A stretch of DNA of 64,000 nt from Phoronis australis (Eukaryota > Animalia > Phoronida): assembly GCA_002633005.1 (NCBI GenBank), contig NMRA01000804.1, positions 1-64,000 of the forward strand. The letters run 5' to 3'. The notes under the pieces were generated by a model. That model was given only the letters and a program-made list of their open reading frames with translations, searched no databases and was not told where the DNA came from. The position numbers and the translations under genes are program-made. Below are positions 10,562-33,286 of the stretch, piece after piece; the first letter of the stretch is position 1; every line of letters begins with the position of its first letter.

Positions 10562-11681
10562 TCACTGTATGCAGCATTCATCCTTCTTTTTTGGAGCAGA
10601 CGGATAAGACATAGGATATCCAACTGGGTAAGCTGCAGTGCTGGACTGTGGCTCATAGGGGTTACGGTAAATTGGCCTCGTAGCCAAGCCAACATTCAAC
10701 CCACTGGCTGTATCCGCAACACTCACTGGGTTATTAAGGGAAGATACAGGGGTACCTAACTTGGACTTTCGTGGGGTAATGGCAGGTCTTCCCCCAGCAC
10801 TAAGTGGAAGTGCTGACCTCTGTTGTTGGCTCTGTTCATTACCAAGAACCTCACTTTTGACATTTTGACGACTTAGCGAGGGTGCTAATGGATTTCTTTC
10901 AGGGCTAACATTCTTCACCGTGTGAAGACTAATGGCATGTTCATTCCTGTCATTCAGTAGGGGATGTGAAATAGGGGCATGCGAGGTAAAACGGGTGGAA
11001 GGGGTTTGACTTGGAATTACTTCCTTCACAGTCATTGTAGGGACATCGGACACTGGCCTGGTCGGGGGAGCTGGACCGATTTGAACCGAGTTCCTCAAAA
11101 ACTGGACCACAGGAACGCGGTTTCTCGCAGAACTACCTCCAAGCTGCTGGTCAATCTCTGAGTAAGGTGGTGGCATGTCCCCCACAAGGATATCATGGCG
11201 AGACGTAGCGACCTTACCAGAAACTGCTGCAGAAGTTGCAATGGAGGAAGCGGGTTCTAGCATGGACTCAGACGTCAGCAATGGTGAGTCAGTGATGTCA
11301 TTGACTGTATACTGTATAATATACTCGGGGTAACACTGCTGGCGCTCCGTTGCCATGTAAACAGCAGGATTGGCAAAATCATCCAATACTGTGTGAACAG
11401 ACGATGCCTGTGTACCAGATCCAACCAGACCAAGGGCAACACGGCCCACAAACATAAGCAGGGGGCCATCTGCTTTAGATGGCATTAAACGATGCATGAG
11501 GTGAGACGTTTTAGTAAAATAAACGCCGGAACCCAGGTTAACAAGGCCCTCGAGTTGCGGGCACTCAGACAGGAAGTTGTTCTTCACAATAAAGTTGACC
11601 AAATGTTTGTCACATGACCAACCATAGAAAAGCCTTGCTTCAGTATTAGTGCCGCTTGTCTGGGAGAGGTGCCGCCGTTTC
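10562..11681 (-). CDS. PARP12: PARP12/ZAP-like exon 9: PARP core (degenerate), low-complexity tail, CaaX
   Basis: EARLFYG...GSGVYF...MFVGRVALG...NPAVY...QCYPEYIIQY; ends KKKDECCIQ*; acceptor tttcttacag. Confidence 0.9.
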
Positions 11682-14600
11682 CTGTAAGAAACGAGAAAAA
11701 ACTGTCAATAAAATGGTTACACAAGTTTCACATTTACGTGACAAAAAATATAAATCACAACTTCTGGAACTTTCTGTGAAATAATCTTCCCGACAATGTG
11801 GACCAACCTGACTCCTTCTACTGACTGAATGCTTCCGTGAAAAATTTGTCCACCTCTGTCGGTGTTCCTATATACACAACAACTACAAGTCCCTGGAGCA
11901 TGGATCACACGACTTAAATGCATGGAAAATTGACTGATAGTGAATTCCAGAAATTGCGATTGATGATCTTTTCACATCTTGTTATTCACCAGAATGAATG
12001 ATATTGTTCAACGTCTAAGCTTTAGATATGAAACAATAGCAGTCGTCAGTTTAGAAGCAGGAACAAAAATTTGTTGAAGAGTGTTCACTGGCCTTTGTGG
12101 ACATCATTGGCCAAAAATGTGTCATCTGTATCCTTAAGTGGGTGACCACCTTAAGTGGGTGACCACCTTAAGTGGGTGACCACCTTAAGTGGGTGACCAA
12201 TGGTCATCAAACGGCGATACTGTACACTCAAGTCCCATCACACATTTACATTTAAACTCTGATACGCTGAAAACCCGTAAACTTGTGATTTTCTCTCTGT
12301 AGCACTGAATCTATGGAAAATATTGGCCTAATTGGGTCTACCTAAAAAGTTTTCCTGTAATAAAACATCCATTTTTACCCCAAGCGACGGTGCGTTTCTC
12401 TGGATGTTTATTACCACAATAACGCCTCAATTATCACAGCTGCAATCAGTATGAACAACTACTGAAGCAAAATGTACACTGCTGGTGAGCTTAAAACTCC
12501 ATAATCTGTCCAAATCATAAGATAACGCAAAATATACCCGACTTAACAAAGCCACTACCAGGCTGCATCACTAAAGGTCAAATAACCAGCCCTGACCTTA
12601 ATTTTGAATGCATTTTGAAGCCACAACGATGTAATGTCAAAGGTCATAAGTTCACAGTATATGCACATTAGTGAAGTGCAAAAAATTTTTATATCTCTTG
12701 ATGATTTCTAGGAAATAAGACTTGAATTCTTGACTTAGGATTCACTCAAGTTGTTGCTGTTCATAAACCATTAATAGCCGATCAACATCATCAACTTTTT
12801 CGTTTTCTGCTGATACCAATCTCCATAATTTACTTAAACGTGGTACATTTTACTTAAAGGTGATACATTTTACTTGAAGGTCATACATTTTACTTGAAGG
12901 TCATACATTGTACTTGAAGGTCGTACATTTTCCAATCACACTAACGGGACGATTTTCTTAACTATGAATTTAAACTTTGCCTTGAGCCTTTTCCTAGTCA
13001 AAAAATGTCCACTGACATCCTGCTCCCATTTACCCAAATTGTGAGCAATTAAGTGTTACCTGTCATAATCTCTCCACAGTTGGCTGTTAGAGATCTTCTG
13101 AACTTCTCGTATTGTAACCATACCAGCCGGCATGGATTCATGAAACATGTCACGTATTTGCCCAAACTCTTGCTGTTGCAACATAGAGAGAGTGGCACCT
13201 TCATCTCCATCATGGAACACAGGGTCAGGATAGCGTGATGTGAATGGAGCAGAGACAGTTGAGGCTGGAATGACCTGCTTGACTCTCGTGCTGACAGGCT
13301 CTGCACTGGTCAGTAAAGACGGACTGGTCAGTGAAGCTGAACTGGCCAGTAAAGATGGACTAGTCAGTGAAGGTTGACTGGTAAAAGAAGGTGGACTGGT
13401 CAGTGAAACCTGCTTCAGAGCACCAACAATGCTTGGCTGAAACACGTTAGACGATTCCCCTCTGCAACAGATATACATTCACTATAATAATTTGAAAACT
13501 ATAATTTGATCACAGAACTAAAGTTGGTCACCAAGTGTGAAGTTCACATGGATTGTTATAGATGTTCTGCATCCTTGCAAGACAGAAACTATTAACACAG
13601 CAACTTTATAATTACTAGTCGCATTTTCATCTTCAGTGCCACTTTGGATAAAAGATAATTCTAAAGTTGTGTTCAATTCTTGCTTAGTTAAAAAATAATT
13701 ATTTATGATCAACCGTGGCATCACAGAAGGAAAATCTATAATCACTTACTTTATACTAAATATATTTGTTCCCACTACCATGTTTGTACTTTGCCTCCAC
13801 CCCCACGTCACACAACAGCCAACCCCCACCCTTCAATGCCCCACCCCCAAACTATACGTTCAGTCTCATCATGCAAATGCATGTACCTTTTCACAGACAA
13901 CATACAACTTGAATGTTTGGCTAAGTTCAGGTATATATACACACACCGTGACCCCTTACTCGCTTTCCCACTCCATTGCTACACCGTCACACTCACCTTG
14001 CAAGCTCCTGTACCTCTTCAGGACTCACATACAGTGGTCGGCTGCGTATAGGCAGGCGTGTACCTGTCTCCTCGTGCAAGAAGTACATCTCCTCAAAGTT
14101 CACCTCATAGTGGTCGCCATCTGGTGAGCGGAACTTGTACTTTGCCTGACCCTCAGCATACTTCCTCTCCAACTCTTTCATAAAGGGACTACCTTCGTCT
14201 TCCTGTATTAATGACACTTGGGTAAGCGCACTATATATATATGTATATCATGGTTTATGTCCACACAGAACCTGGTTGAGTAGATAAAATTCACAACAGC
14301 ACCCCCTTTGAGATTATTTAGTAATCGTTGGTATTTCATACATACTTGACTATGTGCCAATTTATTTCTCAGAAATTGACCTATCACAAGCTCAATCCCA
14401 TGCAATAAGTCAACAAACAAACAATAAGTTTTACCCGATGTGTCTATTGTCTGGTAAAATGGCGGCTTGGAAACGAAGGTGTGTCAAGAATGCATCGTTC
14501 TGCTTCATCCGTTAACCCGTCACTCAAAATCCCAGCGATGATTCATTGGCTGTTCAGATTCTGATGAAACTTTAAGATATGATGCTGTTTTCTAAAACGC

Positions 14601-17600
14601 TTTTAAATTGCTTTTAAATGTTCTACTTTTGCATGTGGGGCTATAAAAAATTATAGGGATTTTATAATTCCCTAATCATATCAAACAAAATGAAATTTAA
14701 TTTCTCCACTTCTCAAACTAAAACGAGAACAACACACAAGGTTGAAATATGTCCATGACTTCAACGCGAACAATGTGTTTCTAGGTGTTTTTATTAGTAT
14801 CATAAAATGGCCACTAGATGGTGCAGAATACCTCAAAAGCATCCCAAAATGGGAAGATGTCGTAGCCTTTCGGCAAACAGAAAGCTACTTGCTATATTTC
14901 AAGCAAATCAGTACTTGATTACAGAGGCGAACATGAAAAAACAAATTTCCATTAGGAAAAAAGCGACAGTTCAAGAAGTCCATCTAATGGGAATACACTT
15001 TCCAGACTTCCAAAAGATCTTGCTTGGGGGCTTAAGGAGAACCGCAGATACAAAAACTTTCACCAGTGGGCAGCAGAGTGGTTGAATTTCCACAATGAGC
15101 CTCTTAACGGTTAGGCGAATACATAAGGAGATGACTCCAAAAATAACAAAACTGGCCACTAGGTGCATATCTTAAGAAATGAGCGTCTTCCTTGTTAGCG
15201 TATTATTCACAACAAGAAGCTAGAGAGGCAAACATAAAAACAAAAATTACAACAAAGGAGCACAGCGGTAGTCAGAACAATCCAAAAGTCTTAGGCAACC
15301 ATAGTCTCATTTATAGTACAACACTTGCAAAGTTTCACGAAGATCCTTCAAAGGAGATACAGAAGAGCATGTAAAAAAAGACAAAATCACCACCAGGGGG
15401 CAGCCATGGTCTTTCTATCAGGAACACATTTGTCAACTTTTTCAATGATCCTTTAAGTGACTCATTTGATAAAGAGGCAGATGCTAAAAACAAACTCGCA
15501 AAAATAAAAATGTCCACTAGGTGGTGGGAAAATACATCAGATCTGTACAAAAATGCAAGAGCAATGTCATCACCTTTACAGAAATCTATTTGCCAAATTT
15601 CAATCCAACAATCAACAGAGATATAGAGGCAAAATGAATGCAAGGAAAATAAAATTCCCACTAGGGGGCACAGCCGTAGTCGGATTATTGATCTGAAACA
15701 GGTCATAATCCGTCGTCAGTTGACAGGAACACATCAGCAAAATCTCACAGTGGGTTACGAAAACACAGCCATTGACTCAAAAATGCCACTAGGGGGCACC
15801 AAAGTAGTTAAACCTTTCCAAACATCAGTGTTATCTGTGGTCTTCTCATCAGAAACACATCTGCAGCCAAATGAATTTTTACAAAGAACTTTCGAGCAAA
15901 TTGGCTGATAGAGAGGCGGCTGCCAAAAACGGACTAGAAACTTTTAAAAATCACCACTAGGTGGCGCAGAAAATGTCATATTGTTAGAAGACAGGACAGC
16001 ATTATCGTTTCCTCAATAAAAAAACCTATTTGCCAAGTTTCATGAAAATCCAATAACAATGAACTCAGAAAATACACAAGAAAAAGTAAAAATATAAGGG
16101 ACACACCAGTCGTTGGATTGATCTAAACATGTCAGGGCAGACACATGCTAAACTATGTAGGGCATGCATACTAATAACCAAACGCATAACAATGGGAATG
16201 TCTCCTTATATTTGGGGACTATTTTAGTTTAGAGGTTATTTCCAGAATTTTAGAAAATCATGTTGTCAAAAGAAGAAACTTTAGTGTCCCTACATAGTAA
16301 AAATAGGTTTGATTTTAATCCAAAGTTTTGCAGATGATCTTGGCAAAGTAAAGAAAGATTTGAATATTTCTTTTAATTAACTCCCATTATCAAACCCATG
16401 ATACAAAATATGCTTTTGTTTTTATCAATTAAACACTGTTTAGGGGTTTATTCACACTAATTCCATTGCCACGCATGTGTTCTTAGAGACTCTCAACCTT
16501 TGACCTCTTCTACCAAGCAAAACAGATACGTTTGAAAACTTGGGATGACAGTGGGCCAAGTGCACCAATATTGCAAAAGATGATTTACAGTCACGACAAG
16601 GAACTTGGGGTTTATTAAACGTTTTTTGCAACAACATTAGTTGTATATGAAACAAATCAACAACTTCCTGTGCTGTCCATAGCTATTAGAAGATCAAGCT
16701 GAGCAGAGCTTCAGTTTTATGGACGATTCCACCAGCAGGGTGTTAACGTTTGTTACAGTGTGACACACTGACGACTCACACCTGCACCTGGCATGACCAA
16801 GTCTATATACTTCTGTATCAAGACATATTGAATGGGAAAGTGCTTCTATTAGCCACGATTGGGTGAATTTGAAAGGAACTTCACCAGATTTAAAAATTGG
16901 CACCAAAAGCAGCTTTTACCCTAGACAAGTACCAACCATCTGAGCTGAGCCTGCACGGCTGGAGTAGGGCCACCATACGCTGAAAGCTTTCCGGAAAATA
17001 TATGGCTCACAGTGACTAAGTCACCAACCTCATGTTGCTAGAAGTACCTTTGCAGGTAAACATTGTAACCACAATCAACATTTTTTAAAGTAGTCCTTCT
17101 CTCTGTCAAAGAAATGGAAGACTGAACGTCTTTGATGTGAATGTGCTCAGGGTGAAACAACGGAAACGTAGAGGATTATGGGAGATCCCCCATCTACTAG
17201 CCACGCGAGAGGCAGCAGCTCAGACAGGAACAAGATTGTCCACTTCTGTGCTAAACAATGCTTATCTAAGCCAAACTTGAGAGGACTGATAAGAGTTAGG
17301 TAAACACTGTTAGCTAAACAAGTTAGAAGAGGGTAGGACGAGCGCAGGAGAATTGAAAAACAGCACAAGATCAACAGCTGAAATTAAGTGGCGCAACAAA
17401 ATGTTGCAAAAAATGGAGAGGATCGTCATTAAAGGAAACAGCAGCAGCGTTTCTGAGATGTCACCTTGAACGCTTATATCCAATAAACTGTGGTATTGGT
17501 ATCGTTTTACTATGTACCTTGCTTTTTTGCAAAATTTTACTTCACGGACATAGCCACATGACCTAATATATGTCAGATTGGAAAAATGTTAAAAATCAAA

Positions 17601-20600
17601 TTCCACAGGATTAATTTATGCTTTCACAAAATATACACCTTGACTAAGTTAAACAAATTAACCAGGAATAATATACACCTTGACTAAGTTAAACAAATTA
17701 ACCAGGAATTTCTTAAAGATTGCATCACAAATATTACCATAGTGACCCTACGTCAAAGGTAAATAAAAGATTTAGATCTTATACTAAAACTTTGATACCA
17801 ACACGACATAAGTGTAACCTTACCCCTTTCCATTCGCCATTTGGCAATCCATAATACCAACGCCAACGGGTCGAAAAGGGCGAGTTATCTTTGTCTGGGT
17901 TGAAAGGAGGTGTTGACAAGTGACGGATTTCAAATACTTTTACTTCACCACTTCTTTTGTCACAACCAGTTAACTCCATGGAATCAAAGGCAATTTTACA
18001 ATCACCAAAGAAAGGAAGTGGTTCTCTAGAACACATTCAAACGGAAGAGTCAAACTTAGAGCAAGAAAGCAGAAAGTATCACATCATGGCGAATACATTT
18101 AGGGGCCAGTTAACTCACACCACAAGGTGTAACTGAACTCAAGGTAATTAGTTCCCGTATTCAGATCCTGAACCATTACGGAGATGAAGCGCGCTGGTGG
18201 GGAGGATATTCAGGCATGCATGACATCACTAATGGACATTAACAAAGTTGGATGGAGCAGAGCAGTTTCAGAAGAACAACAGTTCTTCACACAGCACGTA
18301 ACATCAAACAAAGAAACATGAATCCAGCTCAACATCCAAATTTAACAGCGGATTTGACTTATGACACATACATAACAATTAAAAAGATTTGAGTATTAAT
18401 TATCACAACCTATAACCAGGATACAGCAAACAATTAAGTCACCTTTGAGACTCGGACTTGACAGGGAAAGTCAGGTTCAGTTTGAGAATGGCTGGATCGC
18501 AGAACTTCTGCTCCAGAACACAGCACCAGTCTCCCTCAAACAGCTTCCAAATGCTCCTCTGATTCACTGTAGTCTTGTATTGCCAGTAGTACGGCAGTTC
18601 ACAATGATGGTTGTGACAGTCAAGGGCACTGGAGACAAGCAAGAGAAGGAGTACAATAGTGATGCTTGTGACAGTCAGAGGCAATGGAGACAAAAAAGGC
18701 AGTACATTAGGGATGGTTGAGGTGTGTGTACACAAGTGGGGTTTACGAAGGCATCCTGCTGGCAGACTTGGGGACGTTATCTGTTCATAACTGAGGTGGC
18801 TATGTAAGTATCATCAAGAGAAGACTGCACTTAAAGTCTTAGTAAAACAACTTTCCAGAGAACTTCACAAAATGTTCATACTCTGACCAGAAGATCGTAA
18901 AGCATTCTGACAAAGCTGTTTACATATTTTCTCTGTGATTCAAGAGCTTTCATTGTGTTGCACTCTACTAAACAGTCGAATCATTTAAACGTGCAGGTAT
19001 TTTAGTTAAAATCCATAAGCACATAATCCTAAAATATGGCATAGCATCCTTTTAAGCAGAACAAACAAACAAACAAACCAACAAACAGCAAATACACTCA
19101 CTAACACTTGTTACTCAGAAAATCCACACAGATGTCTCTGAAGTCATCATCATCATACACACGAACTTCACAGTTATCGTCATCAGAGTCTGTGCCCTGC
19201 CGTTTCATGAATGAAGAGAAGCCACTGTCAGTAGAAATGTTACGATGAAGTTGACTCGTTTTGACACCTTTGGATGAGACCTTATCTCGAGGAGAAGCAA
19301 AGTTGTTGTCAAGATTTGCAAGCATCGAGTCTGTCACATCTGGTTTAGACACCTCAGCCTTTTTCTTTTTCATCTTGTCTTCTTTGGTGGCTGGAAGTTT
19401 CTCCTCTTTCTCCAAAGGTGGTGCTGGTGATGCTGACATAGCCACTTCTTTAACAGATGTGTTAAGTGAAGACGATATTGGTAGAATGACATGTTTGACA
19501 ACTTTTATATCAACTTGGGCTAATCCAAACTTCTTCAAAACATTCATATTTGACTTGATGTTGAGGTCATGCCATTTGCCACATTTCACATTTGACTTGC
19601 AAGTGCCGTCTACATAACCCTGACAGACATGTAGCTTTCCACAAGCCTCAGAACACGAATCTTCGTTATAGGCGGTGCATAGGGCCGGAAAAGAATGCGC
19701 GACGACATACTTAAGATTAACTTTAGACATTCGGTCAAAGCCACGAGTACGGAGAAGCTTTCTTAGTTTGGCATCTTGAAAATCATGAGCTTTTGAACAA
19801 AGCTGATCATGCTCCCTATCTCCAATGTAGTCGCGACAAACATGCAAAAACTTGCAGGTATCGACAGAACAACCAACAGGTGAGTTGTAGTCTTTACACA
19901 ACCAGATAGGGAACTTCAAACAAATCTCCAGCTGTCTATCTGACAGGTAGCACACAAATTCATGAGTGTGATTAAGTAGCCAAGACTGAAAGTTGGATAA
20001 AGTGGTAAACAACTGCAGAACGGCATGGTCCTCAACCAGCACAGAATAGGAGCAGAAACCACCGTGAGACAGCAGCAGTTGCTTGATAGATGTCACTAGA
20101 GTTGCATCACTCTGTTCCTCCACCACTGGTTCCGACGTGACACTCTCTGCATCTGAATCACTGCCACTGCCCAGGACAGAACTCGACAGATTCTCCATGC
20201 TGACGCCAGGCTTCAGCTTCTTTCGGACTCGAGGCGTGCGCTTTGTCTTTTTTGCACTTGCACTGCTCAGTGGCATCTCCTGCTTCAAATCATGCATTGG
20301 CGAAGTACTATCCTCTGATTTCCATCTTACCAACACATTCACCCGCGTGTTTTCGTCTAAAGCGTCCTGGCTAAAACAGTACTCACTTCGCAGACGCATG
20401 CAGTTCTCATCATGATAACTGTGGTTCCTGCTACAGTTGGGCTCCCTACAAACACCCAAGACAAACCAGCGACAGATATGGGCATTCTGACAGTTGATCG
20501 ACTGTCTGCAACCAATAGGTTTATTGTAGTATCTGCAGACGGTGAGAAAACATTGCCTGATGTACTCTAACATTTCATCACTAGAGTTACTGATGATGGG

Positions 20601-23600
20601 CACCTTCCGTGCCTTCAAGACCTTCAGGTTTTGAGGACTGGTGAGCGTATGGCCTAGTTTGCAGGATTCAGTCTTGCATGAACCTCGCTCCAACCACATT
20701 TTGCAGATGTGTAGAAAACCACAGGTGGTGTTGCTACAGTTGCCATTGCTTTTGATGTAAGTAGGACACAGCTTCACTTGCCCCGGCTTCAAAGGTGGGT
20801 TACCATCAGAGGTGGATCTTAAATCTGAAAGTAGAGAGGGAGAGAGCGAAATAAAAATTTGTTAACTTACATAACAATTTGTGAATTTCAATAAAAAATT
20901 AACACAGTTGGACATACGTGTGTGTGTTTGTGTGGATTAAAGCCAGAAATAACTTACCTAAATGCAAAAGCATCCGATTGAGGACCACCGACTTATACAA
21001 ATAAAATAGAATGCAACGTAAAACTAACAAGGAATAGAAACATAACAGTAATTCCTATTTTTATGGCATACGATTAGAACACTGGCATAGGAAATCAGTA
21101 ATGTAAGTACTTCCATAAATAAACAAGTAAATAAAAGTGATCCCTTAGTAATTAAAGGTGTACTACATATTCGCAGACTACAACATGTCTATAAGTAGTA
21201 ACTCATGCATTTTAAGCTATGCATGTATGTGTGCAAAAAATAGCAGAGCTTCTATGGAATTTGTATATGGTTAATCATGGTGGACACTAAGTTGAAGATG
21301 GAGTAGCTTGAGTCAATTTCCTAGTGACTGCTCCTGAAATTCAATAGCGATTCAATACACTACAGCTAGAATTTCTCTTAAGTGCTGAAATTCAATCGCC
21401 ATTCAATACTTTCAATAACCATTCAATTGACTCACAATCAGGTTGGAGGGCAGTGCCAACTGAATTTTCATTCAATAGACATATTCAATAGAAATTCAAT
21501 TTTCTATTGTATCTCAATTAAATCTCAACTGAAACTCAACTTCTCCTTTTCGTATGGGGGATTCTAAGCTAACCCTAAACACTGGCCACCAGGACGCAGC
21601 TTACTTTACTCGGGCAACCCTTAATGTTGAGCCATGCAATGTTTGCACTTGTTCTATTGCTCTATCTGACATCCACTTACCCTGCACACTGTGGTACTTT
21701 CTGATTAAGCTAGACACTGGTGCACTCTGGGGCATCTCGTCAATGTCTCCAACAACAAGCACAGAGCCAAAGATGGTCTTTGTCGCTTTAGTCGTGTCAA
21801 TGTGATACTTGGCTAGAAGTGCCCTGATGTGGGGGTCAGCGAAATTATGGCACTTGCCACATGCCTTGGGCGACTGGCAGGTGCCCAAGGCAAACTTGGC
21901 ACAGACGTGGAGGCGAGAGCATGAGTGGTCGGCACAACCTTCCGGGCTAAAGTTGTAATTCCAGCATACCTGGCCAGAACAGAGAAAAGGATTGGTCTTT
22001 TCTAAGGAGTGTGGTTATTACATAAGTTCATGCCTAGCGTTTACACACGGAGGAAGGTCATGAAACAACAAGCTATCGTAACAAATGAGGAAATGTTTGA
22101 TAAATTCTCTAGTTATACATCTTTTGCCCACAATTCTATAGGAATCGGAGCACTTACTGAAGTGTCGTTTTATTTTGTTGCTTTAGATAATTCGAAGTAC
22201 TGCTTCTAATATGATTTATTTTTCATTTAATGATGTCTCTTGGGGAGCTTAACTCCACAGATGAGATACGCACTCAAGGATGTATTTTTAGACAATAAGA
22301 GAAATGCAGAAAAATTAATCAAACAACGAAAGTCTTATTGTTTTTAACGAACTCTAAACCAGAGTATATGCACTACAGTATGCGAAAACACCTTCAAAAT
22401 TGTGAACGTAACTTCAATAGACAACAATGTTAACATACCTTCAACAGACTGTCTCGGATACAGTCAAGCAGGTGCTCATTGTCGGTGATGGGAACCTTGC
22501 AATGACGCAGTACTTTAATGTTGTGCTCCGTCAGAAAGTTGTGGCACATCGAACAGTGTGGTGGGCAGCGTCTTCCACTCAGCCATGTCTTACACACGTG
22601 CAGGTAAAAACAATCGGGTTAACACAGTTTCCGTTCGACAGATGGTACTGTAGACACAGCTTGGCTTGACTAGGCTGTAGTTGCACATCTGGGAAAAGCA
22701 GGCTCTTTGGCTTCTCTAATGAAAAAGCAGTCAGCATATTAAAGCATTGTCAATCATCAGGGACAATTATGTGTTCTCATAGCCGATACATGTAGATTCG
22801 ATATTTCAAAAAGCTGCGCCCTCTGGTGCAATTCTTGGGAAAGACCGGAGTTGCATTCATGGATGTTTAATGGTGGCTTGTTAGCGTACTTGATGGGAGA
22901 TGCTGGAGCATTTACTTGTGTGCCTGGATATGACTTTACAACAAACAACTAAAAAAGTGCATACAGATCTGAAGCACTATTATAGTGAAAAATATAACAG
23001 TTACTTTGTTTTTTATTAAACTGCTTGTCAGCAAGTTGGAACGACATCCAGATCAAGGCATGATTTAATAGAAGACATTTGATTCAGTGATGGGGTCTAA
23101 CGCTTGCAACATTTTTGTTTGGCTGATTTTCTAAGTGAAAAACATCACTCAACCGCCTGGAGAAAATCAGTTTAAAGATTTAGCAGCATATCTACAAAAT
23201 TTTTGTGAAGGTGTGAAAATATATAGTGAAAAGGGATAGTACACTAAGTATATGTCTTGCAACAAGTTTGACGCCCTTCGTGCTTGCAATTCTAATGCAG
23301 TCTACGTTTGAGCTCGATCTGCGTGACGGTGCACGCTTCAAAAGGCTTGACAGCCTCTTCCATGTCTACTTCTGTCAAATTTTCTGTTTATGAGCCGAAA
23401 CTTGGTTACTCTGGTCAATCCCCGTTTGCAAAGCTACAACTACTTCTTGACTATGTGCACTATGTTTCAGCATATGGGATATTGCCTATTGAATTCAGAA
23501 GTCTATATATTGCTTATTGAATTCAGAAGTCTAAACTGACTTAGCTATCGCCAGGCTGATTGGGTGAAGACTTCATTGACAAATCAGAACGCAGCATTCA

Positions 23601-24810
23601 CACAGACACACCTTCATTTCCAAGCCGCCAGTTTACCAGACAAACAACACGTTGAGGGTTAAAACTTATTGTTTAATTGTTTGTCGACTTTCCGCAAGGC
23701 AGAGCTTGCGATAGGAGACTTGGGCTATTATATGCTCCTAATTATCTACCAGTTGCATGGTTAAACTGTGCCGAACTTAAAAATTTCTCTGTGTAGTCAA
23801 AGCACTTACAAAAATGTTTAAGAATTGTAGAATTTTGAAATGTGTACAAGAAAGATCGTGACTATAAATAACTGGTGAGGCCACTTGTGACAATTACAGA
23901 CATTAGAAATTCAATCTTTTCTTAGTAGGAATGGCAGAATTTGGAAAATAAATTGCTACAAGAATGCAGCCAAAAACAAATTGACACTAGATGGTGCAAT
24001 CTTCACCTTAAGTTCGTCCAATAAGCTAATGGCTTCAATTCTTGATGAGGACATATTTGACAAGATTTTGAAGATCCACCACAAAGAAAAATATAATTGC
24101 CAATTAAGTCAGAGCCTAGTTCATCCAAAAGTGCACAACTGTGCTATGCTCATTGATAGAAGCACAATTGTCAAACTTCATGACGAAGCTCTATATGCAA
24201 GAACTTGGCAGACACTGAGGCTCTATACAGCTGGCACTGAGGCAGCATCGTCGTATACCCATACATCCAGTGCTCCTCTCAATAGGATCACACCAGTCCT
24301 GTTAAATTTCACAAATTTGAGGGAGACGCGCAAATATAACTATAACTATGACGCACTAAGTTGACTATTTTCACAATTAATGGACCTTCAACTTGGTGGA
24401 TAGAGCAGTAGACGGCAAAAGAAAACTGGCCCCACGAGGAGCATATTATGTACGTCGAAGAATTTATGAGAACGATAGCTTTTTGATGAAAATCCGTCCA
24501 TGAAATCCAAGGATACAAGTAAACATAAAAAAGCACAATTGCCAATAGGGACGACACTGGTACTTTCTAATATCAATTAAATGTGCTGTAGCCAGATTAC
24601 TGGTAATTAATCTGTGTCTGCATGACTGGCTCCGCCCTTACCTTCATAGTTGCCAGTACCGCCTTGCCCACCACCTCTAACTCCATAGTTACCACCACCG
24701 CCACGCCCGCCGCCTCTAACTCCATAGTTACCAGAGCCACGTCCATTGCCTCTAATGCCAGAGTNGCCGCCTCTTCCACCATGACTGCTACCGCCCCTCG
24801 TCTGCTCCAT
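10562..24810 (-). CDS. PARP12: PARP12/ZAP (ZC3HAV1)-family CCCH-WWE-PARP protein, whole gene span, 9 coding exons, ~1524 aa
   Basis: Exons 24810-24642, 22715-22439, 21969-21681, 20824-19102, 18628-18443, 18025-17824, 14202-13997, 13461-13060, 11681-10562; all GT-AG with compatible phases once one base is restored near 22617; domain order CCCH-WWE-WWE-PARP as in PARP12/PARP13; symbol marks the family, not proven orthology. Confidence 0.85.
12132..12199. repeat. 17-bp tandem repeat x4
   Basis: CCTTAAGTGGGTGACCA, four exact copies. Confidence 0.95.
12828..12931. repeat. 20-bp tandem repeat x5
   Basis: TTTACTTGAAGGTCATACAT-like units. Confidence 0.9.
13060..13461 (-). CDS. PARP12: PARP12/ZAP-like exon 8: Ser/Thr/Pro linker and start of PARP domain
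   Basis: EFGQIRDMFHESM...IREVQKISNSQLWRDY typical of the PARP domain N-terminus; phase 2/2 splice sites. Confidence 0.85.
13997..14202 (-). CDS. PARP12: PARP12/ZAP-like exon 7: WWE2 C-terminal half
   Basis: ELERKY...YEVNFEEM...TGTRLPIRSRP; AG/GT sites, phase 0/2. Confidence 0.9.
14811..15967 (+). repeat. Degenerate intronic repeat array carrying same-strand CCACYAGRKGG (CTCF-like) motifs
   Basis: Motifs at 14811, 15390, 15514, 15658, 15786, 15954 (weaker at 15060, 15156), mostly 124-168 bp apart. Confidence 0.65.
17629..17709. repeat. ~41-bp direct tandem duplication
   Basis: AATATACACCTTGACTAAGTTAAACAAATTAACCAGGAAT twice. Confidence 0.9.
17824..18025 (-). CDS. PARP12: PARP12/ZAP-like exon 6: end of WWE1 and start of WWE2
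   Basis: IAFDSMEL...IRHLST...TRWRWYY...GEWK; phase 2/0. Confidence 0.9.
18443..18628 (-). CDS. PARP12: PARP12/ZAP-like exon 5: end of 13th CCCH finger and WWE1
   Basis: (ICVDFLSNKC)YALDCHNHHCELPYYWQY...LEQKFCDP resembles the PARP12 ZnF5-WWE junction; phase 2/2. Confidence 0.9.
19102..20824 (-). CDS. PARP12: PARP12/ZAP-like exon 4: CCCH modules 2 and 3 with an HTH-like segment
   Basis: 1723-bp open exon with eight CCCH-type fingers (e.g. CPTYIKSNGNCSNTTCGFLHIC); acceptor ctactttcag, donor ta|gtgagt. Confidence 0.92.
21681..21969 (-). CDS. PARP12: PARP12/ZAP-like exon 3: CCCH fingers 3-4
   Basis: VCWNYNFSPEGCADHSCSRLHVCAKFALGTCQSPKACGKCH; phase 0/1. Confidence 0.88.
22439..22715 (-). CDS. 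PARP12: PARP12/ZAP-like exon 2: CCCH fingers 1-2, with an apparent 1-bp deletion near 22617
   Basis: KLCLQYHLSNGNCV / PDCFYLHVCKTWLSGRRCPPHCSMCH in two frames; 277 bp is one short of the phase-compatible length. Confidence 0.8.
24642..24810 (-). CDS. PARP12: PARP12/ZAP-like probable first coding exon: RGG/Gly-rich
   Basis: ATG 24810, MEQTRGGSSHGGRGG...NYGVRGGG x2; acceptor ends 24840; donor g|gtaagg phase 1 matches exon 2. Confidence 0.65.
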
Positions 24811-27436
24811 TGCGTGCAATTCTCAAACAGTAATATTCACTGAAACAGAACACAATATATCAAATACAAACAACCAATTGCCAAAATGATAAGCCAACAA
24901 ACAGAGAGTATACAATAGGCTTGGATTTTGATCACGATTATGGCAAAATCCATGAGATAATAACGTTATGAGCCTATATCAACACGTGATTAAATCTCAA
25001 ATCCCTGGAGTACAGAGGCACTGGGGGCTCTGGTTTCCACTGACCACTTGCACGAAACAGTTCCTAACTATCTACGGTACCTTAAGTTTTCACCACATTG
25101 TGGACTTGTGAAAAATTGATAGTTCTTTATTCTCATTACCAAATCAGTTTTTGACTTTGTTATGCACCAAGAGAAAACTCTATGCAGAACTCTCAATATT
25201 ATTTAAAATTAATAAATGGGGACTGTTTCATGCAAGCCCCTAACTTAAGGACTAAGTCCTTGTTTTTTTCATTGAAATAAGTTCTGTTTATGAATATACT
25301 ATTTAGAGTTTGTCAGTACTCATTAGTCACACAGAGGCTCATACAACAAAAGATAAAGTGATAGAAGAAAATAACAGTTTTGAACTTAGGTGAGTCCCAA
25401 TTTGGGACAGTTTCATGCAAATGATTCTCACAGATCAGCTGCTCTTTGCAGTTTTTGTTCAATACACGTCTTCTTCCACTGGGCGAGACAGTCCACGCTT
25501 GCATGCTTTTCAACAAAACATTATGAAAAGGTCCCTTTGTGGTAGTGGCTCGAAATGCATGATACACAAAACTACAACTGAAATGATGTCAGCTCGTCAG
25601 ATGAGCTTTGGTTGTGAATTCATTGAAAATTGATTTAAAACGTTGAAACCAGACATCTCTGATGACGGCACTGACAAATAATCTATACACCGTAACAAGG
25701 CCGCGATCAAACCAATACTCCATCGACCACAGTTACACATTCGATGCCATTACAATATATATTTGACTTGTTTGAGTCGTCTTCATGTTTAATCACCATT
25801 GTCTCAATTTCAACTAACATTCACGTGAGGTTAGCAAGAAACACGCAAAGCCTTTTCACATCTTCCGACCTTGAACTTTTTGAGCCCGTAAACAACTGCA
25901 CACTGTTGTGGGCAAAACTTTGTTCAGAACTGGCCTAAGCCTCAAGCATCAACGTGCTTGTCGTGGAAAACTTGAAGTGAGACTTGATTCTAATGGACTG
26001 CATGTATAAATTGTGCATAATTCCCTTGGCGGCCTTTCAGGCAATAAGCTCTTTGACTGACAGTTTAAAATGCCTTGCTGTCGAGCCACCTGCAGGCATC
26101 ATGGCTTGGATTCCCAGCTTACGGGCCACAGGTGTGAGTCCATTGATCACCATCAGTACACAGTATATACATGAAGGTGTCACACTTAGTTCCCATCAGA
26201 ATTTCAGAAGTATTCCATTTGAACCAATAGAAAAAAATTCTAAGAAACAGCAGCTATGGTTCAACTAATCATGCACAGCCCTCTTGAAAGACATTGATAG
26301 CACTTATGAGCATTCTGCTGCAGCAGTGTCACACAAAACCTAGTAGGCCACCATTATATGTAACGGAAGACACCTATGTAAACAGTTCCAGATAACAGAC
26401 GAGACAACATGTATAGATTCGCCACAGCGAGAATTAAGGTCAGAGTTTTTCAAATAAACAGTGCATCTCATATCTGTGATGTAGGAATATGAGAACTCTG
26501 GAGTTTTATGTTGTGTACCAATTCACTGGAGCAGGGCATTTTAAATGATCAAAAAAGAACAATAAATGTTTATAGTTATGTTTCTTGGAAATATGCACAG
26601 ATTTAGAATTGTTTGAAATTAATGGGCAACTCTGAAATTCTGGGACAATGTGACATAACTTTGTGTAGTGTACTGCACGAGCAGATGACTAACATGTCTG
26701 GAGCTAGGATCTCACGCAGGATGTTGGGGGTCTTGTAGAGGCCAGTCAGCCAACAGTTATAAGCATAAGAAAACTGCTAGGAAACAATATGCTGTGTAAA
26801 ACTATGTTGACTTAATTATCTTCCACTGTGATGGTGTTAAATGTGTCCGTAGTTTATTTCAGTTTATGTTTTTTAATGATCTGTACACATACCTGTTGTA
26901 TACATCTAATTAGGGAGGACAATCGAAAAGTAGGTGCTCCATATCTGCCTCTGTGTAAAACCCACGTTGGTAAATTACCCGATTTCAGACTTCAAAGTTA
27001 ACTACAAGACAATTTTGTGTTATAAATCGTTACCTTAGTCTTTATCTGTAATCTTTTTGTCTCGACTTATTGCTGATAAATCATCTTTGTAAGCTTTTTT
27101 AGCACGCGATTTTCCGCCATGCGACCAATTTTTAGATGAAGAATTTATCACTCTTTTAATTGGTAATTATTTCTTTTTCAGACATTCTGTCAAACTGCTG
27201 CGCATTGACACTTTTCAAACAGCAGTCGTTAGTTCACTAAGTCGCCGCATGTCAGCGCCACCTGCGGCTACGTTGAAGTTCAATGGCATCGCAACTTCAT
27301 CATTCAAAATAAAGTTGTTACAAAGAGTTTTTGTTGCGTAAATGATGAAATCCTTCATGTTAAGAGTGATTTGTGTTCCCAAATGGTCTTTTGTCTACTT
27401 TCTGATGTTTTTTTGCCATGATACGATCTAATAGTA

Positions 27437-27529
27437 CATGGGTGGCACCCAGCACTGAAAAAAGTGGGGGAAGCTATAGCCTTCCCCGGCGACCCCAGCC
27501 CCCTTTCAGGCAATGATGTGTTGCCCATG
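27437..27529. mobile_element. MITE-like element with 5-bp TSD (second copy 31533-31625)
   Basis: CATGGG...CCCATG flanked by TAGTA at 27432-27436 and 27530-27534. Confidence 0.6.
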
Positions 27530-28204
27530 TAGTAGTATTCAGGGGCAGATCTAGGATTTTTAGATAAGACGGGGTGCCAGGGCAGAGTATTACGCAGGAT
27601 TTTACCCATAAGATATTNNNNNNNNNNNNNNNNNNNNNNNNNNNNNNNNAACTCATCATTGCTGTAATAATAAGAACTTTTGATGGTGAACTCAAAACCG
27701 CCTCTGGTCGGGTCATAGTGGGACAGTGCAACTGTTTAGATCCAACACAGTGCTTTGCCTTTTAGCAACACTCAGACCAGCAAAAGGCAACATGCTGCAA
27801 GCTAATCGTATTTTACGCTACTAAATATAGATTCAGCCAGTTTGAAATCTCCAAAAAATTCACGAAAACTGAAGAAGGATGAATTCTGAAGCGCAAACAA
27901 AACAAAATACCTACCTAGCGTCTCTCCACCGAAGGCCAAGCATCAACTTCTAAACTGTAACGCTGTTTACGTGATGTTGGTTTGTTTCACCAGTACTAGT
28001 TTCCAAGAAATTGTAGTCTCAATACCATGCTCAATCAAAGACTGTTTTTTGTACTAATAACCTAAACTTTTTTCGACATCAATGTGACTTGAATGGTAAA
28101 AAAAATTTAATGAAATTTGAAACAGGCCATTTAGCTATAATAATTGGCAAAAAATTACAGTTATGGAAAACATAGGAGTTTTGAGAGTAAAAGGCAGTGT
28201 TTCA

Positions 28205-28215
28205 AAGATGGCGGC
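28205..28215 (+). promoter_or_regulatory. YY1-type motif near the probable USP24 TSS (copy at 32890-32900)
   Basis: AAGATGGCGGC ~150 bp upstream of the ATG. Confidence 0.5.
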
Positions 28216-28352
28216 GCACGCGAAAAACTGGAGTGTCCCTTGTTTTCATGTAAATCACTGTAAATTGACCTTTCCTGTTAATTTGAAAGGGTAGTTCATA
28301 TTCATCTAGCTGGATATTAGATTATGGATTTTGAAGAATACCAGAAATAAGT

Positions 28353-28601
28353 ATGGATGTAAACGAGGAACACGTACAGACACTTTTGAGCATGGGATTC
28401 CCCCATGAATCGGAAATCCGGACAGCGTTGCGGTTGGGCAAGAACGACCTGAACGAAGCGGTGGCCATTCTAACTAACGAACACCCTGGCTCAGGATTCG
28501 AAACATTTGATGATGTGGAAATGAAGGATGAGCCAAGAGCCTTAGTGGAGTATGGTCCATCCCTCCCCCCGCCATCTTACGATGATGTTGTGCATACAGA
28601 A
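28353..28601 (+). CDS. USP24: USP24 exon 1 (UBA domain), copy A
   Basis: [16 protein letters not shown]...[19 protein letters not shown]; donor gaa|gtatgt. Confidence 0.85.
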
Positions 28602-29789
28602 GTATGTGGAATTTTAAAAACTACTCTGTGCTTTTGTTCTATAGATACCTTAGTAAAATCGTTTCACATTAGTTATTGTTGTTTACCGTTAGACCTACGC
28701 CTCCTGTCCTGGAACCTAGTCCTGGAGGCCCAGGCAGTATCAGAGTACAGCTCCTCTGGCTTTGCCCTGTTGTAGCCCGACAAGAGAGGCAGTGATATGC
28801 ATTTCAATATTTAAAAAAGAATAACATTGAATGATGTGTGATTCAGAAGAAACTGTTTGAAGCATGCCAAACGAATTATTTAGTCACAGCATTATTAGCC
28901 AATCATATGAATCATAAACATTGGTATTACTCCTGACTCAGCTATTCAATTTACCAATGCCGTATATGGAAAGAATGGGCAGCGCAAATTGCCTTTGCTG
29001 GCAACCTGGCGAAAATCCCAAGTTGGCAAATGAATTCTGGGGCGGCCAAAACTGATAATCACAGGTTGCCAAATGAAATATGAGGTTGCCGATCCAGCAT
29101 AAAAGTTGTCGACTAAAAACATTAAAAAAATTTATGGTCATCATGTGTCTCATTCTCAGTGTTGTGAATATACATTCATTCTCTGACTCAATTCCTCTCG
29201 CCAACGAACGAACATAGAACTCGCACAATTGCATGCACTGGGGGTGCATATTTCACTGATCTTGACCGATTTTTGCGGAATAATTTCTGTCTACTTCTTG
29301 TTGTAATTTAGTGTGTTTGATGTGTGCTGACTCCTGTGGTGGCAAATGCACCGATTTCATGGAGTAAACTGAACAACTACGAATAAAAGGTAATGAATCT
29401 AGGAAAACTGTCAGTAATTTGAAATTTGGGGAAGTCAACACGAACATTGAAACAAATATAGGAGGAATTATTGTCTGACTTTGATACTCACAATGGCGAC
29501 TTTGTGGCGACTTGAGATTTATCCCAGGTCGCCAAACACAATCTAAAGTTGCATTGGCGACCTGCAGGTGGCACTGATAGGTCACTCAGTTTCACTTGAC
29601 CTCACCCTGCCTATCTTAAATTTTGGAACCTCGTAAACACGGGTCCTCAAAACTGTGACATGTATGAGATGGACTCTTAAAAATAAATTGACGGCACAAT
29701 AGTGAATACAAACGTCCATGTATAACTGGCTATTGCAATGCGATTGCGTTGGAAAGCATGTGGTTGTTAAATTTTTACAATACTTGCAG

Positions 29790-29973
29790 AGCTGTGACAA
29801 AACATCGTGTGAGAACAGCGGAGAACAGGTGGAAAGCCAGACATTTGAGTTTCCAGTCACAAACCTGTACGAGCTAGAGGGGAGAGTGTTTACTGAATCC
29901 TGGTCTATTCCATATAAGAAGGAGGAGTCCCTTGGCAAATGTCTCATGGCTGCAATAAGACTGGCAAAGGAAG
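29790..29973 (+). CDS. USP24: USP24 exon 2, copy A
   Basis: [34 protein letters not shown]. Confidence 0.85.
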
Positions 29974-30325
29974 GTGTGTGGTAACATGCGTAAACCTAAA
30001 GCAAAGTCTTCGAAGTAACAGTAACTTCTGTTCAAATTTTCTAAAACATGGTTATCGAAAATTCCATTTTTTAGTGGCTGATCGCGTTTTTAACTTCTGA
30101 GGATTCACCTTGGTTTGTTTCATGGTGACTGTTGTGTACAAAGCATAAGGTGAAGTCGCTGTTTCCTTGATTAAGATTATTTTTGTCCATAAATTTGACT
30201 AATAAAATTTCATCTGTCTGCGAAGTTGTATGCTTAAATGTATACAATTTGAAATAACTGCATGCCATACAACGGGTTGGGAGCACTAGATTAATTGACC
30301 TAATGCTTTTGTTTATCATTGTTAG

Positions 30326-30393
30326 GTCTCCTGGAGGCGGATGAGTACTGTCGGCGTTTTCTTAACAAGTGCATGCCGGAGTGTTTTCACAAG
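30326..30393 (+). CDS. USP24: USP24 exon 3, copy A
   Basis: [22 protein letters not shown]; phase 1/0. Confidence 0.8.
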
Positions 30394-31125
30394 GTAAGTT
30401 GTCTTGGCTTGCTAGAACACGATTCCTCAAAACAAAGTTCCCGTTTTACCAAAAGCCATCACTTCTACACTCTGTCTTGGCACAGACTGTCGTAAGTTCC
30501 ACTGAATGTGGGTCATGAAATTGGTCAATACATGTTCATGCAAAGAACGTTGAAGTTTACTGGTCTTGTAAAAAGCACAGTGTTACATTGACAATAATGT
30601 GCTTACGACCATCTTTTTTATGTCTCAGTATACGAGTGTGGATAAAATGGACACCCAGCTCTTTTTGTTATACTTGTAATGGTTTACCTGTCACGTGACT
30701 TCAGACGACTTTTTGCCATTACAAACTCTAAATTAAGTCGAGACTTGGGAACTAAATCGAAGATTGAAAACATTTGTAAGAAGTTCGTAAAACTCACACA
30801 TTTTGGAAATTGCTGTAAGTACAAAACCAGTGTTGATATTGAATTATGGACAGAAGACACAATCCTTACTGTTGCCTGTTCAAACAATTGCAGACTTTCT
30901 ATGTGATATCTTATGGGCGACAACTCTAACTAAAGCCGTACAATACAGCTCCTTAGCCATATAGATGCTTGCCAGACAGACACGTGGGACGTATCTATGA
31001 TTTCAGCTGATTTCATTGCTGAACAATTGGCTGCGTTTTGTTAAGTTCGCTGGTTTGTTGGACGCGCCTCTTTAGGGGTGTTTAAGCCCAGTGAACTTTG
31101 TCAAGATGGCTGCTGTGTTCACAAC

Positions 31126-31202: not shown

Positions 31203-33037
31203 NGCAATATGCCCCCCCCCCCAATTTTTAGATGAAGAATTTATCACTCTTTTAATTGATAATTATTTCTTTTTCAGAAATTCTGTCAAACTGCTGCGCA
31301 TTGACACTTTTCAAACAGCAGTCGTTAGTTCACTAAGTCGCCGCATGTCAGCGCCACCTGCGGCTACGTTGAAGTTCAATGGCATCGCAACTTCATCGTT
31401 TAAAATAAAGTTGTTACAAAGAGTTTTTGTTGCGTAAATGAGGAAATCCTTCATGTTAAGAGTGATTTGTGTTCCTAAATGGTCTTTTGTCTACTTTCTG
31501 ATGTTTTTTTGCTATGATACGATCTAATAGTACATGGGTGGCACCCAGCACTGAAAAAAGTGGGGGAAGCTATAGCCTTCCCCAGCAACCCCAGCCCCCT
31601 GTCAGGCAATGATGTGTTGCCCATGTAGTAGTATTCAGGGGCAGATCTAGGATTTTTAGATAAGAGGGGGTGCCAGGGCAGAGTATTACGCAGGATTTTA
31701 CCCATAAGATATTTGCACCCTCAAAGTGCCAAATGAAATCTGGGAGTTTTAGGGGGGGGGGGCACGGGCTGGCCCCCTTGCACCTCCCCCAATCCACCAA
31801 TGTCATCTTTGTGGTTTGATGTTATAATTCCTCCTACCTCAGATGTATTTATTTCTGAGCTGATGTGTTATTTTTTGCTCTTTACCTTTTAAGCTGTGCA
31901 ATCCATTGCTTTCATCAAACATGAGGATGATGCATGACGAGCATGTTCCACATGCTAAAAACACATTTAAAGAGCAATATCTATGTAGAAATCGATCCAA
32001 ATTTTATATAATAGCCTACACATCACCACGTTTGTCTCAATGAGACGATTTTTTTATATGCAGCACATTACGAAATTATGTAAACAGCCTAAAAAGGCAG
32101 ATATTTTACGCATAATCGTCGCGTTTCAACGGCCATTTCCTCAGTAACCGCTCACCCAATTTTTCTGATTTTTGCACCATTTCATTTCTCACACCAAGAG
32201 CTTTTCAAAAATGTATGACATATGGGTATTGCAAAAAAAATTTAAAAATGTACGTCCCTAATATAATTTCTTGTCAGCTCACTCGAAAGCATCATGTTCA
32301 CGTTGTTCATCTCCTGCGACAGTCTCATTAATTATAACTCATCATTGCTGTAATAATAAGAACTTTTGATGGTGAACTCAAAACCGCCTCTGGTCGGGTC
32401 ATAGTGGGACAGTGCAACTGTTTAGATCCAACACAGTGCTTTGCCTTTTAGCAACACTCAGACCAGCAAAAGGCAACATGCTGCAAGCTAATCGTATTTT
32501 ACGCTACTAAATATAGATTCAGCCAGTTTGAAATCTCCAAAAAATTCACGAAAACTGAAGAAGGATGAATTCTGAAGCGCAAACAAAACAAAATACCTAC
32601 CTAGCGTCTCTCCACCGAAGGCCAAGCATCAACTTCTAAACTGTAACGCTGTTTACGTGATGTTGGTTTGTTTCACCAGTACTAGTTTCCAAGAAATTGT
32701 AGTCTCAATACCATGCTTAATCAAAGACTGTTTTTTGTACTAATAACCTAAATTTGTTTGGACATCAATGTGACTTGAATGGTAAAAAAATATAATGAAA
32801 TTTGAAACAGGCCATTTAGCTATAATAATTGACAAAAAATTACAGTTATGGAAAACATAGGAGTTTTGAGAGTAAAAGGCAGTGTTTCAAAGATGGCGGC
32901 GCACGCGAAAAACTGGAGTGTCCCTTGTTTTCATGTAAATCACTGTAAATTGACCTTTCCTGTTAATTTGAAAGGGTAGTTCATATTCATCTAGCTGGAT
33001 ATTAGATTATGGATTTTGAAGAATACCAGAAATAAGT

Positions 33038-33286
33038 ATGGATGTAAACGAGGAACACGTACAGACACTTTTGAGCATGGGATTCCCCCATGAATCGGAA
33101 ATCCGGACAGCGTTGCGGTTGGGCAAGAACGACCTGAACGAAGCGGTGGCCATTCTAACTAACGAACACCCTGGCTCAGGATTCGAAACATTTGATGATG
33201 TGGAAATGAAGGATGAGCCAAGAGCCTTAGTGGAGTATGGTCCATCCCTCCCCCCGCCATCTTACGATGATGTTGTGCATACAGAA
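33038..33286 (+). CDS. USP24: USP24 exon 1, copy B
   Basis: Same coding sequence as 28353-28601. Confidence 0.85.

Follow-up and report, generated by a model that had tools for sequence, protein, structure and literature searches.

A PARP12/ZAP-family gene of Phoronis australis with three four-finger units, a C-terminal CaaX box and a degenerate ADP-ribosyltransferase site

The stretch of Phoronis australis DNA analyzed here (64,000 nucleotides, positions 1 to 64,000 of contig NMRA01000804.1, assembly GCA_002633005.1; hereafter the window) carries a gene of the PARP12/ZAP family on its minus strand. The encoded product, referred to as the window protein, is very probably a fast-evolving member of this family with three four-finger units and a CaaX box that was probably inherited, and without the conserved residues for writing and reading ADP-ribose. 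The gene consists of nine minus-strand exons with GT-AG ends throughout, from an ATG at 24810 to a stop codon at 10562. The phases are consistent across all exons except within exon 2, which lacks one base near 22616, so that the uncorrected frame ends at amino acid 102. When a placeholder was set at this break, a protein of 1524 amino acids with a single terminal stop was obtained. A preliminary description of this DNA had proposed nine exons joined in one frame; the exons and their GT-AG ends stood, and the joining in one frame did not, due to the missing base. The features of the locus are as follows.

24642..24810, minus strand: exon 1, with the ATG at 24810 and a Gly/RGG-rich leader (five RGG)
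22439..22715, minus strand: exon 2, CCCH fingers 1-2, containing the frame break
22615..22618, minus strand: 1-nucleotide deletion of the window copy inside finger 1, an assembly error or a null allele
21681..21969, minus strand: exon 3, CCCH fingers 3-4 (Pfam PF25261, E 6e-5)
19102..20824, minus strand: exon 4, fingers 5-8, linker, predicted winged helix, fingers 9-12, Lys-rich linker and start of finger 13
19569..20102, minus strand: complete ZAP/PARP12-type N-terminal domain, predicted winged helix (about 20102-19905) plus four fingers
18443..18628, minus strand: exon 5, end of finger 13 and first half of WWE1
17824..18025, minus strand: exon 6, end of WWE1 and start of WWE2, with the W611-equivalent Trp retained (17859-17857)
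13997..14202, minus strand: exon 7, remainder of WWE2 (Pfam WWE, E 8e-5)
13060..13461, minus strand: exon 8, Ser/Thr/Pro-rich linker and N-terminal part of the PARP domain, with stranded RNA cover
10562..11681, minus strand: exon 9, PARP core, tail of about 240 amino acids, CaaX box and stop (RNA depth 6-10)
11360..11626, minus strand: degenerate NAD site, Y at 11626-11624, Y at 11521-11519, V at 11362-11360, and Leu in place of the AxYS Tyr at 11500-11498
10562..10591, minus strand: basic patch and CaaX box, KKKDECCIQ-stop, with the Cys at 10576-10574

The order of elements in the protein is RGG leader, 12 fingers in three four-finger units, Lys-rich linker, finger 13, WWE1, WWE2, PARP domain, tail and KKKDECCIQ, with a predicted winged helix preceding the third four-finger unit. 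Across the 13 fingers 51 of the 52 zinc ligands are canonical, the exception being a His at the second Cys of finger 10. Pfam was run on the nine exon pieces, with some matches under the curated cut-offs, and identified zf-CCCH_PARP12 in three pieces (best E 7e-14, exon 4), WWE in two (8e-5 in exon 7 and 0.04 in exon 5) and PARP in one (1e-4, under the curated cut-off). Foldseek and Pfam together placed the gene in the PARP7/12/13 subfamily, as a CCCH finger, two WWE domains and a PARP domain are all present; this succession is the subfamily plan (PMC11784840). The series from RGG leader to CCIQ claimed in the preliminary description was therefore recovered in the placeholder model and partly by Pfam. 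Its claimed features were confirmed, but the winged helix before unit 3 and the loss of the WWE2 pocket had been missed.

Expression was assessed with three raw RNA runs from one study (18-19% of each, 1.6-1.8 gigabases [Gb]) and one contig set. In all three raw runs every exon-bearing bin was covered (depth about 2-15) with first mates on the plus strand, which corresponds to minus-strand RNA in most stranded libraries. Spliced reads joined exons 5 and 6 (n=34) and exons 2 and 3 (n=18) exactly. Seven reads joined exons 1 and 2 with an imprecise donor; in the exon 1 region (24663-24880) depth was 2-5 and the reads do not pin the donor at 24642 exactly. Contig pieces stopped at the donors of exons 4 and 8, and the 3-4, 6-7 and 7-8 joints had no support among the matches listed. 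Introns fall within finger 13, within each WWE domain and within the PARP domain, and this favors a single transcript. The possibility that the exons belong to separate genes or transcripts, foreseen in the preliminary description, was ruled out by these split domains together with uniform depth and transcription on one strand. These results indicated that the gene is expressed as a PARP12/ZAP-family member. Contig X1 continues about 55 bases beyond the 24642 donor before exon 2 (24585-24693), with substitutions and a 7-base gap relative to the window, and has a 36-base insert within the RGG tract. An intronic repeat at 15646-16056 was covered on one strand at more than 100-fold depth in all three raw runs, most of these reads coming from other copies.

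At the frame break, the frame is restored in contig X1 (depth 17.7) by an additional base behind 22615. The raw reads near 22615 list no insertion at depth 1-3, and the depth dips as if reads were clipped. Our guess is that the frameshift is probably an assembly error; the window contains isolated Ns and nearly identical duplicated blocks, as is usual in draft assemblies. The alternative is a real null allele.

The PARP part was compared with structures and with family members. Its best match in the PDB is human ZAP (4X52, E 1.4e-9), and PARP12 was also aligned. In these alignments Y1171, Y1206 and V1259 match the Y-Y-V triad of ZAP-L, in agreement with what the preliminary description had claimed. 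A model of the exon 9 core (predicted local distance difference test [pLDDT] 77) has PARP12 as its best Foldseek match (E 2.6e-7) and superimposes on ZAP with a root-mean-square deviation of 2.6; the PARP fold is thus predicted to be kept. The features of an active mono-ADP-ribosyltransferase are missing: there is no H-Y-I, Leu replaces the AxYS Tyr, and the donor and acceptor loop motifs are gone. Besides the AxYS Tyr, the motifs NFD-R, RPP and YDSCV are lost. Across the ZnF-WWE-WWE-PARP region, 82 columns are conserved in 90% or more of 97 homologues; the window protein retains 49 of them, and the homologues retain 64-82. The erosion extends to WWE2, where Gln is changed to Phe (14082) and Asn to His (14076) and the Trp is retained; 95 of the 97 homologues have Q and N in these columns. 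Their equivalence to W611, Q668 and N670 in ZAP numbering was deduced from the motif, and comparison of WWE2 alone with ZAP structures by sequence gave no match. ZAP Q668 mutants fail to bind poly(ADP-ribose) (PAR) and N670 contacts the ligand (PMC8853533). Given the eroded triad and motifs and the substituted Gln and Asn of WWE2, both the writing and the reading of ADP-ribose are likely gone, unlike in ZAP, which keeps the reader. Contig X1 and one X4 read have 12 clustered differences from the window at 11342-11375, around the third triad residue, which is still Val; the cluster would stem from a strongly diverged allele, from gene conversion or from a paralogue.

The distribution of the triad was examined in a survey of 114 family proteins. 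The query was the WWE-PARP part of a Ptychodera homologue, 120 of 122 hits were listed (803-2555 amino acids), and six proteins without WWE were dropped; group labels follow the source names. The length range favors long-tailed proteins and omits PARP12s of about 700 amino acids, so that the fractions are not family-wide rates. A residue other than His in the first triad position occurs in two of the 114 proteins, one from Mya (Phe) and one from Paramisgurnus (Gln, with a CaaX box), and outside this set in Dallia (Y-Y-V in the second PARP domain) and Esox (Y-Y-I). All 43 amphibian and all four sauropsid rows have His, and platypus and echidna ZAP retain the triad His (supplement of PMC12204182). 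Because these early-branching ZAPs keep the His, the predicted catalytic loss is independent of that in mammals, a conclusion for which tree placement is not needed. The claim of an independently reached dead triad therefore held, as bird, amphibian and monotreme ZAPs keep the histidine. The match to Y-Y-V itself is less striking, because each change is one transition away and Y-Y-V or Y-Y-I is found in Dallia and Esox. The predicted catalytic loss is the only convergent trait, and it is an easily reached and recurrent change.

The CaaX box showed a different distribution in the same survey. Cys at position -4 was found in 3/3 hemichordate, 3/3 lancelet, 4/6 cnidarian and 14/16 mollusc proteins, as well as in 10/36 fish, 1/1 lungfish, 35/43 amphibian, 4/4 sauropsid and 2/2 unnamed ones. 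The invertebrate total is 24 of 28 proteins and 13 of 15 genera, compared with a background Cys frequency of 1.6%. The occurrence of the box in several phyla holds in spite of the length range of the survey. A Lys-rich run-up like that of the window protein is common among the CaaX ends of the survey homologues (P0003, P0004, P0028-P0144). Porites, Montipora, Clytia and Ptychodera have proteins that combine arrays of 12-14 fingers with a CaaX box and an H-Y-I/M triad, so both the long array and the box have invertebrate precedents. A vertebrate-only study of 2025 placed the gain of CaaX in tetrapods (PMC12204182), and the spread of C-terminal Cys in our survey is in conflict with that placement. 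The box is probably ancestral to the family and far older than published. A convergent CaaX was rejected on these counts, which contradict the independent gain favored in the preliminary description and fit its alternative, a trait older than assumed. ZAP-L depends on its CaaX box and on the residues of its inactive triad, and human PARP12 is described as having no CaaX box (PMC8568172). Invertebrate ZAP/PARP12-like genes were already known (PMC8102003, PMC11784840, PMC2964712); in a literature search that left subscription journals mostly uncovered, no report was found of CaaX on invertebrate members or of an enzyme-dead invertebrate member. Two or three tandem PARP domains are present in fish, coral and acorn-worm members (P0007, P0008, P0030, P0031-P0040). 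In the tandem-PARP proteins of Dallia and Oculina one of two domains has an altered triad, and some may be fused gene models. CCCH pairs of the PARP12 type make up nearly all of P0001 (ENA, 1538 amino acids), for which neither a WWE nor a PARP domain is recorded.

The zinc-finger region was compared with the RNA-binding domain of ZAP, in which Y108 and F144 touch CpG (PMC8568172). In unit 2, aligned with 6UEI, Y108 is replaced by L and F144 by C, and the 5-residue ZnF2 loop is missing; units 1 and 3, counted from the finger Cys, also have no equivalents of Y108 and F144. A CpG pocket was rejected on these grounds, and the ZAP-like CpG sensor envisaged in the preliminary description was not borne out in any of the three units. 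Residues 485-700 were modelled with AlphaFold (pLDDT 89.5), and ahead of unit 3 the model contains a domain of helices and strands that is of the winged-helix type. Five of 401 Foldseek matches to this model had E<=1e-3, and all five are ZAP N-terminal RNA-binding domains, with template modelling scores of just 0.39-0.43, so that the packing is uncertain. The winged helix plus four CCCH fingers of the PARP12/ZAP type is thus predicted as the third unit with two finger units in front, and we infer that it would be the ancestral module to which units 1 and 2 were added.

A phylogenetic tree was built with LG+C20 from 34 rows (44 less 10 near-duplicates) and 389 columns, without mammalian ZAP, PARP7 and PARP11 rows, and with two PARP-only mollusc rows as the outgroup. 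The window protein has the longest branch in the tree (2.68 substitutions/site) and falls at an unresolved invertebrate base, outside a vertebrate clade with 100/100 support. Its nearest rows shifted between runs from cnidarian to lancelet, and its identity to any row is at most 30%. Grouping with the six tetrapod ZAP-like rows was rejected by the approximately unbiased (AU) test (p-AU 0.019), while a single clade with all 14 vertebrate rows was not (AU p=0.43). The placement outside tetrapod ZAP, proposed beforehand as a check, was therefore supported, although the long branch limits the trust to be placed in the tree. No close match to exon 4 was found among longer proteins (six matches, 21-29% identity), and none of 261 candidates from metagenome contigs was confirmed as an orthologue.

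Coding differences between the window and the RNA contigs amount to 2.6-5%. Selection was evaluated with 40 of the 91 RNA differences listed, 34 of them in exons 2-6; 24 of these 34 change an amino acid and 10 are synonymous. A cluster in finger 1 includes eight non-synonymous differences out of ten. None of the 24 amino-acid differences hits a zinc ligand or creates a stop, a weak indication since about 1.5 are expected. Either diversifying selection or relaxed constraint would account for the variation in exons 2-6, to which any errors in the window would contribute. In finger 5, at the start of exon 4 (20711-20824, its 5' end), RNA cover was present at 88% likeness and nearly absent at 92%, a pattern that points to a second hypervariable finger patch.

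The closest invertebrate proteins are those of Porites (P0043), Montipora (P0051), Clytia (P0074), Ptychodera (P0029) and Branchiostoma (P0041/P0047), which like the window protein have 8-14 CCCH fingers, ZnF-WWE-WWE, PARP, a tail and a basic patch with CaaX. The lancelet proteins end in CTIQ or CSIQ and the window protein in CCIQ. These long-array proteins keep H-Y-I or H-Y-M, whereas the window protein has Y-Y-V and Phe/His in the WWE2 pocket. Human ZAP-L (PARP13/ZC3HAV1) shares with it the winged helix and four fingers, ZnF-WWE-WWE, Y-Y-V and CaaX. However, human ZAP has one four-finger unit, a CpG pocket (Y108, F144) and a working PAR pocket (W611, Q668, N670), while the window protein has three units without Y108 and F144, no pocket Q or N, and a position outside the tetrapod ZAP clade. 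Human PARP12 has a finger spacing without the ZAP ZnF2 loop, as does the window protein, but is an active mono-ADP-ribosyltransferase with His as its first triad residue and no CaaX, according to PMC8568172. The fish proteins of Dallia (P0007, second domain Y-Y-V), Esox (P0014, Y-Y-I) and Paramisgurnus (P0138, Q-Y-V, with CaaX) lost the triad His independently, like the window protein; they belong to the vertebrate clade, have no expanded finger array and show far less motif erosion (P0138 keeps 71 of the 82 columns).

The rest of the window was also inspected. The observed/expected ratio of CpG is 0.76 in the first 10 kb and 0.52 in the gene, a pattern that resembles mosaic methylation. On the plus strand, from 28335 to 49132 and beyond, lies a divergent USP24/USP9-type gene with a UBA exon and PF25010 ARM exons. 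A neighbour-gene search returned two matches, the named one from an annelid (65% over 57 amino acids, with a length-window bias). The CpG ratios, the coding differences to the RNA contigs and, more weakly, the annelid match agree with an invertebrate source. Tandem blocks of 94-98% identity pair 27125-31124 with 31221-35842, and 35839-36607 plus 37777-39880 with 39954-42859; they are likely both haplotypes placed consecutively by the assembler. A THAP-domain fragment (36865-37047, E 2e-4), probably a transposon piece, adjoins a gap of 571 Ns.

Taken as a whole, the best explanation is a likely membrane-tethered, non-catalytic, innate-immune RNA-binding factor, probably without CpG preference, and our confidence in it is evenly balanced. 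The immune RNA-binding mechanism is more tentative and falls a little short of an even judgment. The Cys of CCIQ would be farnesylated and, with the Lys patch, would hold the protein on endomembranes, as in ZAP-L; the 12 fingers and the RGG leader would bind RNA by avidity; the dead PARP and WWE folds would act as docking surfaces that recruit decay or silencing partners; and the targets would be viral or transposon RNAs. The long branch, yet with 51 of 52 zinc ligands and a 240-amino-acid tail open to the CaaX box, points to long-term function. Both Nematostella family members are among the genes most induced by cyclic GMP-AMP (PMC11784840), and an antiviral function is plausible by analogy from family membership. 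The protein is plausibly ZAP-L-like in outline (tethered, non-catalytic, RNA-facing), and it is not a ZAP because its clade, its missing CpG pocket and its missing PAR pocket all set it apart.

Several observations weigh against an immune RNA-binding factor. The fingers of the window protein resemble those of human PARP12 more than those of ZAP, and human PARP12 had no detectable RNA binding (PMC8102003). No orthologue was found when exon 9 was compared with 1.84 billion representatives (16 matches at 29-37%, best E 7e-10). The window copy is frameshifted in exon 2, where one X2 read seems to agree with the window letter for letter. The 10 synonymous differences out of 34 in exons 2-6 compare with 9.6 expected under neutrality for these mutation types, and this near-neutral ratio suits relaxed constraint as well as an arms race.

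Relaxed constraint leads to a different reading, in which the gene is a duplicate of an active PARP12-like gene that is starting to decay, the dead triad and pocket reflecting lost constraint and no new role. The frameshift, the near-neutral ratio, the broad erosion of PARP motifs, the diverged end of exon 1 in contig X1 and the low read depth (5-15 per 1.6-1.8 Gb) all suit decay. Decay is nonetheless unlikely, as a branch of 2.68 substitutions has left no stop in 1524 codons bar one break, the zinc ligands and a CaaX box behind a long tail are retained, contig X1 has an open frame and, more weakly, the amino-acid differences spare ligands and include no stops. The protein could also be a CaaX-tethered, non-immune regulator of the animal's own mRNAs or of stress granules. 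Its expression in all three raw runs and its missing CpG-contact residues agree with such a role, and RGG motifs with tandem CCCH fingers are frequent in mRNA-turnover proteins. This role is improbable, since housekeeping RNA regulators usually evolve slowly, whereas the window protein has the longest branch and many amino-acid differences between individuals. A dead partner or decoy that binds proteins and not RNA, tuning an active PARP12-like paralogue or absorbing viral antagonists, would be compatible with the PARP12 finger result cited above, with a PARP fold predicted to be kept while the NAD site is lost, and with the presence of more than one family paralogue in several invertebrate genera. 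It is quite improbable, because tripled finger units and RGG motifs better suit nucleic-acid avidity. The strong form of the preliminary proposal, in which convergence produced a complete ZAP-L, with CaaX and Y-Y-V both acquired independently and CpG-rich RNA recognized, is very improbable. The triad letters are identical to those of human ZAP, the tetrapod ZAP placement was rejected, and the CpG ratio of 0.52 in the gene region makes CpG discrimination possible; however, CaaX is present in 13 of 15 invertebrate genera, the Y108/F144 equivalents and the longer ZnF2 loop are missing, and the WWE2 pocket is lost, while ZAP uses its own.

Returning to the immune RNA-binding factor, we suggest, as a rather doubtful possibility, that CaaX tethering is ancestral in the animal family, was lost in tetrapod PARP12 and was no gain of ZAP, and that from this ancestor a restriction factor without enzyme activity arose separately in an invertebrate lineage. 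Its ADP-ribose writing and reading would both have been given up, its RNA-binding module tripled and its fingers diversified in an arms race with viruses, so that a ZAP-like defence with another RNA code would have originated in parallel. If the box is ancestral, membrane targeting would have preceded CpG sensing, and one step of the published model of ZAP origin would be reversed. Catalysis has been lost repeatedly in the family (therian ZAP, esociform fish, a loach and a clam), and the gene is a further, probable case from an invertebrate. The window protein would go beyond ZAP, as its ADP-ribose reader appears to be lost too. These cases suggest that the family has repeatedly moved away from ADP-ribose chemistry, a chemistry that viral macrodomains counteract (PMC11784840), and the gene may serve as a natural test of what tandem PARP12-type fingers bind.

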